Below, one piece after another: positions 11,760-14,801 of a stretch of DNA of 63,559 nt. The notes beneath the pieces were generated by a model. That model worked only from the letters and a program-made list of their open reading frames with translations. It made no database searches and was not told the origin of the DNA. The first letter of the stretch is position 1. Every line of letters begins with the position of its first letter. Origin of the DNA: Candidatus Udaeobacter sp. (GTDB lineage: Bacteria; Verrucomicrobiota; Verrucomicrobiia; Chthoniobacterales; UBA10450); NCBI GenBank assembly GCA_036522635.1, contig DATDFM010000071.1:1-63559 (forward strand), written 5' to 3'. Both the position numbers and the translations under genes were made by a program.

Positions 11760-13322
11760 TTATTCATCCAGCCAATCCATCGATTCAAGCAACCTGTGAA
11801 ATTGCGGATTGTCAGCTGACAACACAGGCAGCCATTCGCCGATCGGTTCGCGTTTCCACCACACTTTGTCGCCGATGGGCGCAAACTGATAGCGATAAAG
11901 TCGTGCTCGAATATAACGCGGAGGCGCATCGGGAAACGGGTTGTTCGCGATTAGCGATAGCGTGCCAGGATCGTTGTGGAGAAGTTTCCAAACAAAATGA
12001 AGCGTCCACGGATACTCGGAAGGTGATGACATTGCGGCGAACCAGATTTGCCAATCAATTCGCGGCTGATATGGCGCGACAAATGGCGGCCGGCGATTCG
12101 GATCACCGGGTTTGGCTTTGAACTCGTACTCTTTCCATTTCGTGTCACCGCTAATCAGTGCGTCATCCGTTCCCTCAAAGATAATTTCGTCACGTTCCCG
12201 GCCTACCGTGCCGAATGCGCCGTAAGTATTCACAAGATCAAGTGGATCGTACGAGTAATTCATCAGCTGCCGGCCGGACCCGAGATTGAGGACGGTCGGG
12301 ATGCTGAGCCAGATCACCATGATCGTTACCCCAACAGCAATACCGTTATTAATGCGCGATGGGTGCGATTCCTCAGCCGCGCGTTGCGCGCGTCTCACCA
12401 GCGGTCCCGGCAGAAAGCGCGCGAGAAAACTATCATCAAAGCACGCCAGAAACGGAATGATGGTGAGATAGTTGAGGAACGAAAGATTACCGCTGACGAT
12501 TAGAAAAATCTGGTACGTGATCAGCAAGACGCCGGCGATGTGGCGCGCCCTTCGCGGACCAAAAGAAAACCAGGGGACAATCAGCTCTAAGAAGTGATTC
12601 CAAAGTACTTCAAATTTATGGAACCAAAGCGGAGCAAAATGGAGATATCGGCTGATCGGGTTAGGGATTGGTTGCGTTTCGTAGTGGTAGTAGAGACACG
12701 TCAGATCGCGCCAGCAGGGATCGCCCCGCAATTTGATGAGGCCGGCGCCAAACATGATGCGGAACCCTAGCCACCGAAAAAGCCAAATCACCAGGATCGG
12801 GGGCCTGGACTTCGGGAAGGGTCGGCCATCGAGGAGTGGACAAAGAAAAATCGCCAGGAACCCCGTCTCGAGCAGCTGAATTTCCCAACCGTAGCCGTAC
12901 CAAATCTGGCCTATATGAACAATCGACATGTACATTGCCCAAAGAACCGCAAGCAGGATGGCGTTTGCGTAACCGGCGAGAACCACGAGTGACAACGCAA
13001 ATCCAATCCATGCGAAAATCGACAATCCATGGTCCGAAATTCCAAACCAGAAGAGCGTCGGCACTCGTAACATTCCGGCGCTTCGCGAACCAAGTTGTGT
13101 TTGAATTACGTCTAGAAAATGTGCGGCCGGTGTTAGACCACGCTCGCCAATGAGCGGGACGAGTTGATTTGCCGCTACCAAAAATGCGATTGCATACACG
13201 AATCCGAGTAATCGCAGGATAACAAAGCGCGTCAGCCAATATGAATTTCCGAGCGCGAAAAATCTTTCGACCAAATTTCGGAACTCATGCGGCCTCACAG
13301 GAAAACGTCGAACGCCGAACAC
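11760..13322 (-). CDS. Lipase maturation factor (LMF1/TMEM112-like) family membrane protein
   Basis: 520 aa. Multi-TM N-terminal two thirds plus a soluble C-terminal domain carrying YQPRIDWQIWFAAM, which matches my recollection of the LMF family signature. Apparent GTG start at 13322. Confidence 0.7.
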   Translation of the reverse strand: MFGVRRFPVRPHEFRNLVERFFALGNSYWLTRFVILRLLGFVYAIAFLVAANQLVPLIGERGLTPAAHFLDVIQTQLGSRSAGMLRVPTLFWFGISDHGLSIFAWIGFALSLVVLAGYANAILLAVLWAMYMSIVHIGQIWYGYGWEIQLLETGFLAIFLCPLLDGRPFPKSRPPILVIWLFRWLGFRIMFGAGLIKLRGDPCWRDLTCLYYHYETQPIPNPISRYLHFAPLWFHKFEVLWNHFLELIVPWFSFGPRRARHIAGVLLITYQIFLIVSGNLSFLNYLTIIPFLACFDDSFLARFLPGPLVRRAQRAAEESHPSRINNGIAVGVTIMVIWLSIPTVLNLGSGRQLMNYSYDPLDLVNTYGAFGTVGRERDEIIFEGTDDALISGDTKWKEYEFKAKPGDPNRRPPFVAPYQPRIDWQIWFAAMSSPSEYPWTLHFVWKLLHNDPGTLSLIANNPFPDAPPRYIRARLYRYQFAPIGDKVWWKREPIGEWLPVLSADNPQFHRLLESMDWLDE

Positions 13323-13348
13323 TCAACGTCCAACGCCGAATCGCTTGA

Positions 13349-13384
13349 AATATTGCCAGGGGGGAGATTCGAACTCCCGACCAA
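13349..13384. repeat. Left copy of a perfect 36-bp direct repeat (tRNA T-arm/3' acceptor plus trailer)
   Basis: AATATTGCCAGGGGGGAGATTCGAACTCCCGACCAA, identical to 13655-13690. Confidence 0.95.
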
Positions 13385-13410
13385 CCCCGAATGCTTTCGG
13401 GGCTGCTCTA
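13354..13410 (-). pseudogene. tRNA-like 3' fragment (D-stem 3' strand to discriminator) with a non-canonical hairpin in place of the anticodon arm
   Basis: Minus strand reads TAGAGCA-GCCCCGAAAGCATTCGGGGT-TGGTC-GGGAG-TTCGAAT-CTCCC-CCCTGGC-A. T-arm and acceptor are identical to the intact tRNA at 13660-13731. The 5' acceptor strand and D-loop are missing, replaced by the GIY-YIG ORF. Confidence 0.75.
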
Positions 13411-13650
13411 TTGTTGCAAATGATAGATCGCGACGGTCGGATTCTTCTTTGCTTTCAATGCGCGTTCAATTCTCCGCGCTTCTTGGAGTGTTGGCACCTC
13501 CTTGCTTACGACCATTTCGATTCTGTCGCCAAGCCGTTTGGTTGTGTGTGTATGACCTCGTAGGTGTTGTGCAAAACGAGCATCAAGATCTACAGCCGAG
13601 CCAATGTAATGACGCCCTGAAGACCCTCGGAGTATGTACACCCAAGCCAT
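13408..13650 (-). CDS. Small stand-alone GIY-YIG nuclease domain protein (UPF0213/YhbQ-like)
   Basis: 80 aa, [33 protein letters not shown]...[14 protein letters not shown]. Contains VYIL...YIG, a conserved Arg, and the Glu and Asn of the GIY-YIG fold. ATG lies 9 nt after the tRNA 3' end. The stop TAG is part of a tRNA-like D-stem. Confidence 0.85.
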
Positions 13651-13654
13651 AGAG

Positions 13655-13690
13655 AATATTGCCAGGGGGGAGATTCGAACTCCCGACCAA
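13655..13690. repeat. Right copy of the perfect 36-bp direct repeat
   Basis: Identical to 13349-13384. Overlaps the 3' part of the intact tRNA. Confidence 0.95.
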
Positions 13691-13731
13691 GGGCTTATGA
13701 GTCCCCTGCTCTACCACTGAGCTACCCTGGC
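13660..13731 (-). tRNA. tRNA with CAU anticodon (elongator Met, or tRNA-Ile2 read via lysidine); no CCA encoded
   Basis: Hand fold of 72 nt: GCCAGGG-TA-GCTC-AGTGGTA-GAGC-A-GGGGA-CTCATAA-GCCCT-TGGTC-GGGAG-TTCGAAT-CTCCC-CCCTGGC-A. Perfect 7-bp acceptor stem with a G1-C72 pair, so not an initiator. G27.U43 and an A31/G39 mismatch. The anticodon-arm and variable-loop layout resembles E. coli tRNA-Ile2 as I recall it. Confidence 0.85.
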
Positions 13732-13768
13732 GTGTAATCGGTGCGCAAAGCTAGCAAATTCCGCCAAT

Positions 13769-13820
13769 CGACCAACCCCGAACGCTTTCGGGGCTGCTCT
13801 ACCCACTGAGCTACCCTGGC
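13769..13820 (-). pseudogene. tRNA-like 5' fragment (acceptor 5' strand, D-arm, hairpin, variable loop; T-arm missing)
   Basis: Minus strand reads GCCAGGGTAGCTCAGTGGGTAGAGCAGCCCCGAAAGCGTTCGGGGTTGGTCG, then diverges (ATTGGCGG...). The first 18 nt are identical to the intact tRNA. Confidence 0.75.
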
Positions 13821-13857
13821 GTGTAATCGGTGCGCAAACCTAGCAAATTTCGCTAAT

Positions 13858-13907
13858 CGACCAACCCCGAATGCTTTCGGGCTGCTCTACCCACTGAGTA
13901 CCGTGGC
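13858..13907 (-). pseudogene. Degenerate second tRNA-like 5' fragment
   Basis: Same as 13769-13820, but with one G lost from the hairpin stem, one base lost in the D-arm and an altered acceptor strand (GCCACGGTACTCAGTGGG...). Confidence 0.65.
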
Positions 13908-14024
13908 ATTTAGTTCGGGAAGCAAAGTAACGAGTTTTTCGCGAAACAACCGTCCGCGACAAGCGATTTGCGGGAAAGGAAGATCCAACGCGTCACATTC
14001 CTGTCAACGCGCGGAAACGCGGGG

Positions 14025-14801
14025 CTATTTGCCGGCTGGTGGTGAAACGTACGGCGCCAAATCCTTGTCGCCACCTCGGATCGCGGCCATGAAGCAAACG
14101 CCGCTGTGTTCGGTCACTGCTCCGGTCCACCCTTCCTGATGAACATAGCGCCAGCCGGGAAACCTCTGCACGACTCCGGTCTTGCCGTCTCTCTCCGCCG
14201 GAAAAAGAAAGAACTGCATGCGTTTCTCAGAGACCCAAATTTGAGCGATCCGCCGCGATTCGTCATCTTCAAATACGCGACAACCAATGGTGGCAAAATC
14301 GGCGAACTCTGCCGGAACATCATAATGTTCCAACCCGTGTTTCATAAAGAACAGGTCGCTGAGCGTTCCTGCTTCAGCATTTACTGGATCCAGCATCACC
14401 GGTCGGGTCGAAGCAGCGACGCCTAACAATCTGCGAGCTGTCGTCGAACCGGGAAAATCGTTCAAATGACTAAAGAAATTGAACACAAACACTCCCGCAA
14501 TCACCGCAACAGCGATACTGATCGCCAGCACCGCGGGATTGCGCAGCGTGTTCTTCCACGTTCGCTTCGAGATTGGGGCCAGGTCTTTTTCCGAGAACCA
14601 CTCGGCAGATTCGGCCGGAATGGCGATGAGACGAACCAGGCGCGCGACGGCGCGATCGAAATTCTGTTGATCGGCAAATTCAGCGGAGCCGTCTGCACGA
14701 GACAGCGCTGCGCGCATCGGACGGTCCGCAATTTGACGCGCGCTTATCGGAGCGCAATTTAAGAGTGAACGCTCACGGCGCATCGACGACAATAGCTTCA
14801 T
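14025..14801 (-). CDS. Single-pass membrane protein, probable anti-sigma factor
   Basis: 258 aa. 4-nt overlap with the upstream ECF-like sigma gene. One TM segment, AVLAISIAVAVIAGVFVFNFF. No family motif recognised. Confidence 0.45.
   Translation of the reverse strand: MKLLSSMRRERSLLNCAPISARQIADRPMRAALSRADGSAEFADQQNFDRAVARLVRLIAIPAESAEWFSEKDLAPISKRTWKNTLRNPAVLAISIAVAVIAGVFVFNFFSHLNDFPGSTTARRLLGVAASTRPVMLDPVNAEAGTLSDLFFMKHGLEHYDVPAEFADFATIGCRVFEDDESRRIAQIWVSEKRMQFFLFPAERDGKTGVVQRFPGWRYVHQEGWTGAVTEHSGVCFMAAIRGGDKDLAPYVSPPAGK

Follow-up and report, generated by a model that had tools for sequence, protein, structure and literature searches.

Introduction

Group I introns that carry homing endonucleases are known in bacterial tRNA-Leu, fMet, Ile-CAU and Arg genes. 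The T-even phages possess SegB, a GIY-YIG homing endonuclease that is encoded within a tRNA gene cluster and inherited preferentially together with its flanks (PMC2330249; PMC13096335). SegB cuts within tRNA genes, with RAWTSGAAC as its preferred motif, and its nuclease activity leads to recombination-dependent tandem amplification of tRNA and segB sequences (PMC13096335). On our own reading, this motif would be the complement of the T-loop sequence GTTCSAWTY. The subject here is a much smaller GIY-YIG gene, found in a contig of Candidatus Udaeobacter sp. (Verrucomicrobiota; assembly GCA_036522635.1, contig DATDFM010000071.1, positions 1–63,559), the whole 63,559-nt stretch of which is referred to as the window. 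The gene encodes an 80-residue nuclease and stands between an intact tRNA gene and a modified copy of the 3' part of that tRNA, the ‘tail’, in which the anticodon arm has been exchanged for a hairpin. A U-rich spacer, the nuclease gene and the hairpin-swapped tail make up a ‘cassette’ of about 306 bp. This cassette is probably a minimal, free-standing relative of homing endonuclease elements in its way of life, which would carry its homology arms with it in the form of the tRNA and the duplicated tail and would ride on the tRNA transcript.

The likeness to SegB lies in the placement of a GIY-YIG gene among tRNA genes, and the cassette too shows tandem copies of its open reading frame (ORF) and amplified partial-tRNA units. 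However, SegB is a phage-borne protein of about 220 residues that includes a DNA-binding part and needs no duplicated tRNA tail, whereas the cassette protein has 80 residues, is chromosomal in Verrucomicrobiota and is accompanied by the hairpin-swapped tail. The cassette is not filed here as a member of the Seg or I-TevI families, because no DNA-binding domain is attached to it and any cleavage specificity would be putative. In being a single GIY-YIG domain of about 80–100 residues, the protein resembles the UPF0213/YhbQ proteins (BH0048, PDB 1zg2; EF2693, PDB 1ywl) and the nuclease domain of Slx1. The similarity to UPF0213/YhbQ is weak (E = 8.7e-5, about 30% identity), and the cassette clade is defined instead by its tRNA-tail context. 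We know of no such context for YhbQ; literature searches found none for YhbQ-like proteins, and full-text searches found no description of a GIY-YIG gene in the tRNA-tail arrangement.

Three other systems offer partial parallels. Some endonuclease ORFs at the 3' ends of organelle genes are mobile and bring with them a replacement for the end of the gene, as is reported by Paquin et al. in 1994 for a GIY-YIG ORF at Allomyces atp6. There, as in the cassette, an endonuclease ORF lies at the end of an essential gene whose 3' part is duplicated, which preserves its function, with the displaced partial copy downstream; those genes, however, are mitochondrial and protein-coding and are fused in frame, whereas the cassette adjoins a bacterial tRNA, is unfused and has a conserved, engineered-looking hairpin in the displaced copy. 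Group I introns resemble the cassette in being selfish and tRNA-targeting while keeping the tRNA functional, but no ribozyme was detected here by Rfam, the tRNA is continuous and its function is kept by duplication rather than by splicing. Integrase islands and prophages show the same order of intact tRNA, inserted DNA and repeat of the tRNA 3' part (10.1101/2022.07.05.498093); in contrast to these, the cassette has no integrase, its cargo is one 80-residue ORF and the repeat is paired with an altered copy of the tRNA that begins in the D-arm.

Anatomy of the cassette

All coordinates are those of the window, and the layout of the cassette is read on the minus strand. The cassette is framed by a perfect 36-bp direct repeat, AATATTGCCAGGGGGGAGATTCGAACTCCCGACCAA (repeat search, family D4), with identical copies at 13349–13384 and 13655–13690; an exact repeat of this length is not expected to occur by chance in 63.5 kb. 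It consists of tRNA positions 43–73 and 5 nt of trailer, the upstream copy lying within the intact tRNA gene and its trailer. This tRNA (13660–13731, minus strand) has the anticodon CAU (CAT in the DNA), was called by ARAGORN and by Rfam (RF00005, 69.4 bits, E = 1.1e-14) and does not encode CCA. A 9-nt pyrimidine-rich spacer, ATATTCTCT (13651–13659, minus strand), leads from its discriminator base to the ATG of the nuclease ORF (13408–13650, minus strand), which is contained in the 270 nt between the repeat copies and was identified from the ORF list and Pfam as a GIY-YIG catalytic domain only. The stop codon, TAG at 13410–13408, opens the 8-mer TAGAGCAG, which equals tRNA positions 20–27 and begins the tRNA-derived 3' fragment (13354–13410, minus strand). 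An initial annotation, made from the letters of the window alone, had already described the perfect repeat, the filling of the 270-nt interval by a GIY-YIG ORF, the ATG 9 nt past the discriminator and the stop codon within tRNA-derived D-stem sequence; each of these holds, the ORF assignment now resting on a match to PF01541.

The same annotation called the downstream fragment a ‘truncated tRNA-like copy’. It is indeed derived from a tRNA, but more than truncation has occurred. In full it reads TAGAGCAG-CCCCGAAAGCATTCGGGG-TTGGTCGGGAGTTCGAATCTCCCCCCTGGCA, where the 18-nt GC hairpin CCCCGAAAGCATTCGGGG (13402–13385) substitutes for the 15 nt of anticodon-arm positions 28–42 and the 3' part, positions 43–73, comprises TTGGTC, the T-arm, the 3' acceptor strand and the discriminator. 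Neither the 5' acceptor strand nor the anticodon loop is present.

Two further hairpin-bearing units lie in tandem 5' of the tRNA (13907–13821 and 13820–13732), in an array with an 89-nt period, 2.3 copies and a 93% match. Unit A (13821–13907, minus strand) is made up of a degenerate tRNA 5' half, GCCACGGTACTCAGTGGGTAGAGCA, a hairpin that is one base short (13882–13865), TTGGTCG and a 37-nt spacer. Unit B (13732–13819, minus strand, its first base G1 being at 13820) comprises tRNA positions 1–27, the hairpin CCCCGAAAGCGTTCGGGG (13793–13776), TTGGTCG (13775–13769) and a 37-nt spacer, U' (13768–13732). Neither the fragment nor the upstream units were called as tRNA by ARAGORN or Rfam, whose sole call at the locus was 13660–13731. 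The hairpin motif occurs at three sites in the window, all at the cassette locus, against a chance expectation of 0.01. As a separate observation, both upstream units together (13769–13885, minus strand) gave a sub-threshold Rfam match to YrlA, a Y RNA-like family (18.2 bits, E = 1.2), which is probably due to the common tRNA-like module alone.

The hairpin

Among 258 instances of the hairpin, the 7-bp stem CCCCGAA/TTCGGGG is kept, rare changes in it are compensated (CTCCGAA..TTCGGAG) and loop position 11 is free to vary (AGCT, AGCA, AGCG, AGCC). The lineage of loci L101 and L150, which has 50% amino acid identity, carries another hairpin, CCCCGACAC-NNN-GTGTCGGGG, at the identical place. Compensation in the stem, freedom in the loop and the use of a different hairpin by a distant lineage argue that selection maintains a stem-loop in place of the anticodon arm, and neither one particular sequence nor a double-stranded palindrome. 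The fragment is predicted to fold into this hairpin and a T-arm (−28.5 kcal/mol, z = −3.4), the hairpin beginning 5 nt past the stop codon and being followed by no U-tract. It may split the tRNA homology of the tail into 8 nt and 31 nt, block the formation of a tRNA and, lying so near the stop codon, cap the mRNA.

Two other roles were considered and rejected. The commonest form of the hairpin is a perfect 18-bp palindrome, as might suit the binding of a dimer to double-stranded DNA, but loop position 11 varies and the distant lineage has a different hairpin. A genome-wide repetitive extragenic palindromic element does not agree with the confinement of the motif to the cassette locus within the window. 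A separate GC hairpin, CCGCGAAA(A/G)(C/G/T)TTTCGCGG, is found near the aminotransferase gene of some related loci (near 5179 in L019, L025 and L043, 3932 in L030, 5143 in L022 and 5195 in L037); it resembles that of the cassette and is without tRNA-derived flanks.

The nuclease

The protein matches PF01541 over residues 1–71 (49.5 bits against a cutoff of 22.6, E = 5.4e-13). The conserved catalytic residues of GIY-YIG enzymes (the GIY and YIG tyrosines, Arg, Glu and Asn) are all present, and Y5, Y15, G17, R25, H29, E62 and N70 are invariant among 28 sequences and at least 95% conserved among 47 intact ORFs. The ratio of non-synonymous to synonymous substitution rates (dN/dS) is about 0.13 over 106 informative pairs. 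An AlphaFold2 model (mean predicted local distance difference test score, pLDDT, 92.5) has the GIY-YIG beta-beta-alpha-alpha-beta-alpha fold, with strands at residues 2–9, 14–19 and 44–52 and helices at 22–31, 35–39 and 55–68. Its top fold matches are all GIY-YIG domains, with weak Foldseek E-values of 6e-3 to 0.7, and the nearest structures are those of the UPF0213 protein BH0048, Slx1, the UvrC N-terminal domain and the I-TevI catalytic domain. Together, the low dN/dS, the invariant catalytic residues and the confident model suggest a functional protein under purifying selection.

In sequence, the best PDB matches are BH0048 (E = 8.7e-5) and EF2693 (E = 0.021). An NCBIfam search of the protein gave no family at its cutoff, the group-I-intron endonuclease family TIGR01453 scoring 24.9 bits against a cutoff of 56. 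The catalytic domain occupies the whole length of 80 residues, and a DNA-binding domain of the I-TevI or Seg type is lacking. Phage and plasmid collections searched with the protein by tblastn gave no match, exact scans of viral contigs for the tRNA core and the hairpin fragment gave none either, and PADLOC and PHROGs returned no meaningful family, with no defence-family match in PADLOC.

Occurrence in related genomes

The protein has 918 close relatives, and those with a name belong to Verrucomicrobiota and Candidatus Udaeobacter. The clade is small, comprising at E ≤ 1e-10 157 representative clusters among 1.84 billion proteins, and many of these representatives are partial, which fits frequent decay. 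Eighty related loci (loci are labelled L001 and so on throughout) were taken from species-representative genomes, nearly all of them metagenome-assembled genomes of Chthoniobacterales, Udaeobacter, ‘Spartobacteria’ or Pedosphaera; most counts of tails and gaps are over 79 ORFs. The initial annotation had proposed the placement of homologues relative to tRNA genes as a check, and this placement is non-random: in 80 of 80 loci a same-strand tRNA lies directly upstream of the ORF. No more than 24 nt separate the two in 72 of the 79 (median 9 nt), and in the other seven only an extra tRNA-derived hairpin remnant intervenes. Spacers are T-rich and 5–15 nt long in 70 of the 79 loci. The host of ORFs that are 66–88% identical to that of the window is the same tRNA(CAU), while those at 56–65% identity follow tRNA-Lys(UUU), apart from one behind tRNA-Lys(CUU) and one behind a different tRNA(CAU).

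The tail is nearly as regular, (T)AGAGCAG, hairpin and TTGGT following the ORF in 74 of 79 loci. The T-arm and acceptor strand of the tails correspond to the local tRNA, whether this is of Met or Lys type. The direct repeat always starts at TTGGT (position 43/44), has a median exact length of about 29–31 nt and in some loci reaches 1–7 nt into the trailer (5 nt in the window, 4 nt in L023). A second copy of the ORF lies 306–330 nt downstream of the first in about 15 loci, with 72–100% nucleotide identity between the two, and the same content of about 306 bp is seen in more than 100 loci. Upstream half-tRNA/hairpin units, from one to six, are present in 49 of the 79 occupied loci and absent from 30; the largest arrays, in L017 and L060, reach 6.3 units at 96–99% identity, and the units terminate at tRNA positions 48–54, the start of the T-arm. 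The conserved exchange of the anticodon arm for a hairpin, the link of the upstream arrays to the element and the occupancy of tRNA-Lys genes all go beyond what had been noted for the window.

Some gene calls in relatives are over-extended at the N terminus, translating the tRNA or its hairpin variant. The cassette accounts for these, and for spurious ‘tRNA-???’ predictions. The contigs of L050, L053 and L080 were binned in genomes labelled Alphaproteobacteria, Nitrospirota and Bifidobacterium; mis-binning is likely, because L053 carries Udaeobacter-like LMF1 and anti-sigma genes (81–85% identity).

Empty sites, decay and loss

The order of genes at the locus is aminotransferase, sigma, anti-sigma, tRNA and LMF1. 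A metagenome scan that was blind to the ORF, using an invariant 33-nt core of the tRNA, found this core in at least 120 contigs. With sufficient downstream sequence there were 108 matches, 25 of them occupied and 83 empty. At the syntenic site between the anti-sigma and LMF1 genes, 36 alleles are empty, 11 are intact, nine are pseudogenes and two are remnants. The empty L088, in which GTTTTTTATCTCGCG directly follows the tRNA, and the occupied L023 have a common flank, which in L023 follows the cassette. Orthologous empty sites show that the ORF unit and the duplicated tail have been added at the 3' end of the tRNA, in line with the earlier expectation of a cassette that had inserted at, or duplicated, a tRNA gene. 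Occupied and empty alleles have identical tRNA sequence variants, with none specific to occupied alleles.

Pieces of the hairpin occur in only three of the 83 empty sites and all three are relics: L151 is a remnant without the ORF, L174 retains the upstream scar alone and L155, like L143 and L183, has a decayed ORF. Hence the upstream units are a part of the element rather than of the tRNA locus. The cassette is thus polymorphic at one and the same position of the chromosome, degenerates into pseudogenes and remnants and can leave an empty site that is free of scars; a repeat of 31–36 nt makes such clean loss possible. Invasion, decay and loss form the classic cycle of selfish endonuclease genes.

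Histories of cassette and host

In 43 syntenic occupied loci, the anti-sigma and LMF1 proteins were used as markers of the host. Pairwise identities of the two markers correlate well with each other (rho 0.84), and those of the ORF correlate poorly with either host marker (rho 0.11). Thus L001 and L030 have hosts that are 92% identical and ORFs that are 65% identical, and for L023 and L030 the anti-sigma proteins are 50% and the ORFs 82.5% identical. Flanks and tRNA are almost identical in L182 and L148, and divergence extends from the exact 3' end of the tRNA to a point about 35 nt short of the stop codon. Such a pattern is expected if alleles are exchanged by way of the tRNA at one end and of the conserved ORF terminus with the tail at the other. 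In L051 an upstream hairpin piece with its spacer stands in place of the native −10 region and leader of L148; because these native sequences have been replaced, the piece was imported.

The tail is able to travel with the ORF, since in L079 the T-stem and acceptor of the fragment differ from those of the local tRNA, with compensatory changes. In a neighbour-joining tree of the ORFs, the main Met clade is nested in Lys-associated lineages, with L079 and L101/L150 standing apart; the nesting points to several switches of host tRNA, in a tree that is built on 80 residues and weakly resolved. The sequences indicate that the cassette has moved among tRNA(CAU), a second type of tRNA(CAU), tRNA-Lys(UUU) and tRNA-Lys(CUU).

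Expression

The gap between the tRNA and the ORF leaves no room for a promoter, as the initial annotation had pointed out, and a sigma-70 consensus scan of 13200–14200 found no promoter. A terminator scan of the same interval gave one terminator-like site, which lies inside the ORF on the wrong strand. A probable native tRNA promoter is located at 13980–14007 (minus strand), with TTGACA at 14007–14002, a 16-nt spacer and GATCTT at 13985–13980. TTGACA-N16-GATCTT at 14007–13980 fails the strict consensus scan; it is conserved, however, the same arrangement (TTGACA-N16/17-(G)ATTGAA/ATCTT) standing directly ahead of the tRNA in about 30 empty alleles and also in those occupied alleles that have no upstream units. 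Co-transcription of tRNA and ORF, with release of the latter by tRNA 3' processing, would be the simplest reading and fits the anatomy. Where CCA is not encoded, a cut of the RNase Z type past the discriminator is expected.

Other features of the locus

The intact tRNA(CAU) at 13660–13731 has a G27–U43 pair and an A31–G39 mismatch at the bottom of its anticodon stem, the mismatch being conserved in more than 100 loci; the context of its anticodon arm is as like tRNA-Ile2 (the lysidine type) as elongator tRNA-Met. The orientation of the tRNA and its promoter between the anti-sigma and LMF1 genes flips among close relatives, in occupied and empty alleles alike. The occupied loci L004, L007, L011, L019, L021, L025, L030, L031, L043 and L046 are opposite in this respect to the window, L001, L003 and L005, as are the empty L092, L115 and L118 to L086, L096 and L130.

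Between the cassette and the LMF1-like gene of the window, imperfect tandem repeats of TTCGGCGTT(C/G)GACGTT lie at 13296–13347 (minus strand), and many related loci, among them L003, L024, L047, L122, L133 and L188, have one to four occurrences of GTTSGACGTT at the corresponding position. Since these repeats are found in empty and occupied loci, they belong to the upstream region of LMF1 and not to the cassette; they are perhaps an array of binding sites for a regulator. The longest LMF1-like ORF starts at a GTG at 13322, inside the repeats, and an alignment of relatives suggests that the gene truly begins at an ATG near 13292 (GCCGCATGAGTTCCGAAATTTGG).

Discussion

The polymorphic occupancy of one chromosomal site, the occupancy of more than one kind of tRNA gene and the independence of ORF and host histories are, in our estimate, somewhat better than evenly likely to reflect a homing-like cassette with the tRNA and its tail as arms. 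The ORF, having no promoter of its own, would be reached by read-through from the tRNA promoter, and tRNA 3' processing would free an mRNA with a short leader. The nuclease would break DNA in or beside tRNA genes, and repair off an occupied allele would copy the cassette, the intact tRNA providing the left arm and tail positions 43–73 the right one. As the target tRNA is itself homologous to both arms, no flanking homology would be needed and copying would be independent of context. For the same reason the cassette could re-enter behind its own tail, which would give tandem copies, and precise loss would proceed through the same repeat. The upstream arrays would be by-products of break repair or of unequal recombination between tRNA and fragment; that their units stop where the T-arm begins would agree with breakage close to the T-loop and a subsequent faulty repair in which the hairpin is copied from the tail. 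The hairpin would interrupt the tRNA homology, keep the tail from becoming a second tRNA and perhaps cap the 3' end of the mRNA.

Several points weigh against this account. We infer both the cleavage target and the mode of expression. A protein of 80 residues without a DNA-binding domain has, judging by its sequence, no obvious means of site specificity. If the cut is made inside the tRNA, the resident tRNA has no visible self-immunity, because its variants are common to occupied and empty alleles. The account offers no source for spacer U'. Presence and absence alone could reflect ancient presence and easy loss, and differential loss of old tandem paralogues could explain part of the uncoupling between ORF and host. 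The pair L017/L032 was discarded as a case of horizontal replacement, its divergence being confined to the body of the ORF between identical ends, which is better fitted by gene conversion between tandem copies. Structure-specific cutting in the manner of Slx1, or tolerated self-cleavage, would be possible ways round the problems of specificity and immunity.

It is unlikely that the ORF belongs to the host and has been inherited vertically, for example as a small nuclease of the Slx1/UPF0213 kind for repair or for particular DNA structures, or as a defence factor, having become operonic with the tRNA by chance, with a single acquisition in an ancestor of these Verrucomicrobiota, frequent repeat-mediated loss and a one-time duplication of the tail. 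Strong purifying selection (dN/dS about 0.13) and the intactness of most copies in the genome set would suit such a gene, as would closest solved relatives that are UPF0213 proteins and Slx1 rather than homing enzymes and the lack of copies in phage and plasmid collections; moreover, as the repeat eases loss, absence is no proof of gain. Yet in the ORF-blind sample pseudogenes are about as many as intact copies, and PADLOC gives no defence-family match. A gene of this history also agrees poorly with an ORF divergence that is uncoupled from two mutually agreeing host markers, with the occupation of at least four different tRNA genes nested in the ORF tree, with the foreign tail of L079 and with divergent tandem copies. 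Slightly less probable again is a transposon-like move that needs no homology, in which staggered nicks by the nuclease about 31–36 nt apart at the T-arm and 3' end, joining of the cassette and fill-in would create a long target-site duplication. Variable long duplications are made by the GIY-YIG-bearing Penelope-like retroelements, and the invariable start of the repeat at position 43/44, its extension by 1–7 nt into the trailer in some loci and the match of the tail to the new tRNA after a switch of host can all be read in this way. Target duplication would not, however, produce the positions 20–27 and the hairpin of the tail, nor can it be the source of the L079 tail, which is mismatched to its own tRNA; the boundaries of allele swaps lie inside conserved sequence, as in homologous recombination, and the cassette lacks a transposase, a reverse transcriptase and terminal inverted repeats.

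A role for the RNA product itself is given little credence. Here anticodon-less tRNA-like RNAs, made from the upstream units and from the tail, would work together with the nuclease or with RNase P or Z, whether as a guide, a decoy, an antitoxin or a signal for processing, and an RNA of the 5' half could pair with the 3' acceptor strand of the tail to form a split substrate resembling a pre-tRNA. The conservation of hairpin structure with changeable sequence would be in keeping with this, and the units are recent, amplified and found almost only with the ORF; in other systems, 5'-half tRNAs are reported to guide tRNase Z to targets. But the units are not required, being absent from 30 of 79 occupied loci, no Rfam family covers them, and their boundaries resemble recombination junctions more than designed genes. 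An intron or ribozyme was also considered and rejected, as Rfam at E ≤ 10 matched only the tRNA, and the tRNA is uninterrupted. Least credible, to the point of being very improbable, is an attL/attR scar of an integrase island at the tRNA 3' end that has shrunk to one gene, although islands of this kind are classically recognised by an intact tRNA and, next to it, a direct repeat of the 3' part of the tRNA (10.1101/2022.07.05.498093). No integrase is present in the flanks of the window or in syntenic loci, the 306-bp content is repeated in more than 100 loci with a tail that has the conserved hairpin swap and positions 20–27, and tandem copies are spaced at 306–330 nt.

The homing-like cassette may be taken further, to a new minimal class of homing element in which recognition of tRNA genes, copying by twin arms, an adaptive hairpin swap and tRNA-dependent expression are jointly linked; this stronger proposal is tentative, and its joint truth is rather doubtful. 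The catalytic core alone would recognise its target, either by a sequence, for example that of the T-loop, or, as Slx1 does, by an extruded stem-loop. After breakage, the cassette would enter any matching tRNA gene with its own arms, the tRNA and the hairpin-swapped tail. The hairpin could provide immunity, insulation from the tRNA or a cap for the mRNA, and expression would depend wholly on the transcription and processing of the tRNA. If this were true, it would give a first concrete biological role to a clade of small GIY-YIG proteins of the long-enigmatic UPF0213/YhbQ-like kind.

At its simplest, this unit of about 300 bp, which is found repeatedly beside tRNA genes in soil Verrucomicrobiota, has the look of a tiny and previously undescribed selfish element. 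If the homing-like reading is right, it would be among the smallest self-contained mobile units known in bacteria, with about 300 bp and one 80-residue protein and with no DNA-binding domain, integrase or ribozyme. It would also represent a third way into an essential gene, in which the tail is duplicated and the spare copy is disabled by a hairpin, in contrast to the splicing of introns and the intergenic parking of Seg genes. A testable function is thereby suggested for small stand-alone GIY-YIG proteins that previously had none. For Udaeobacter, an uncultured and abundant soil bacterium, the locus may offer a natural example of nuclease-linked tandem amplification and of a tRNA locus prone to inversion.

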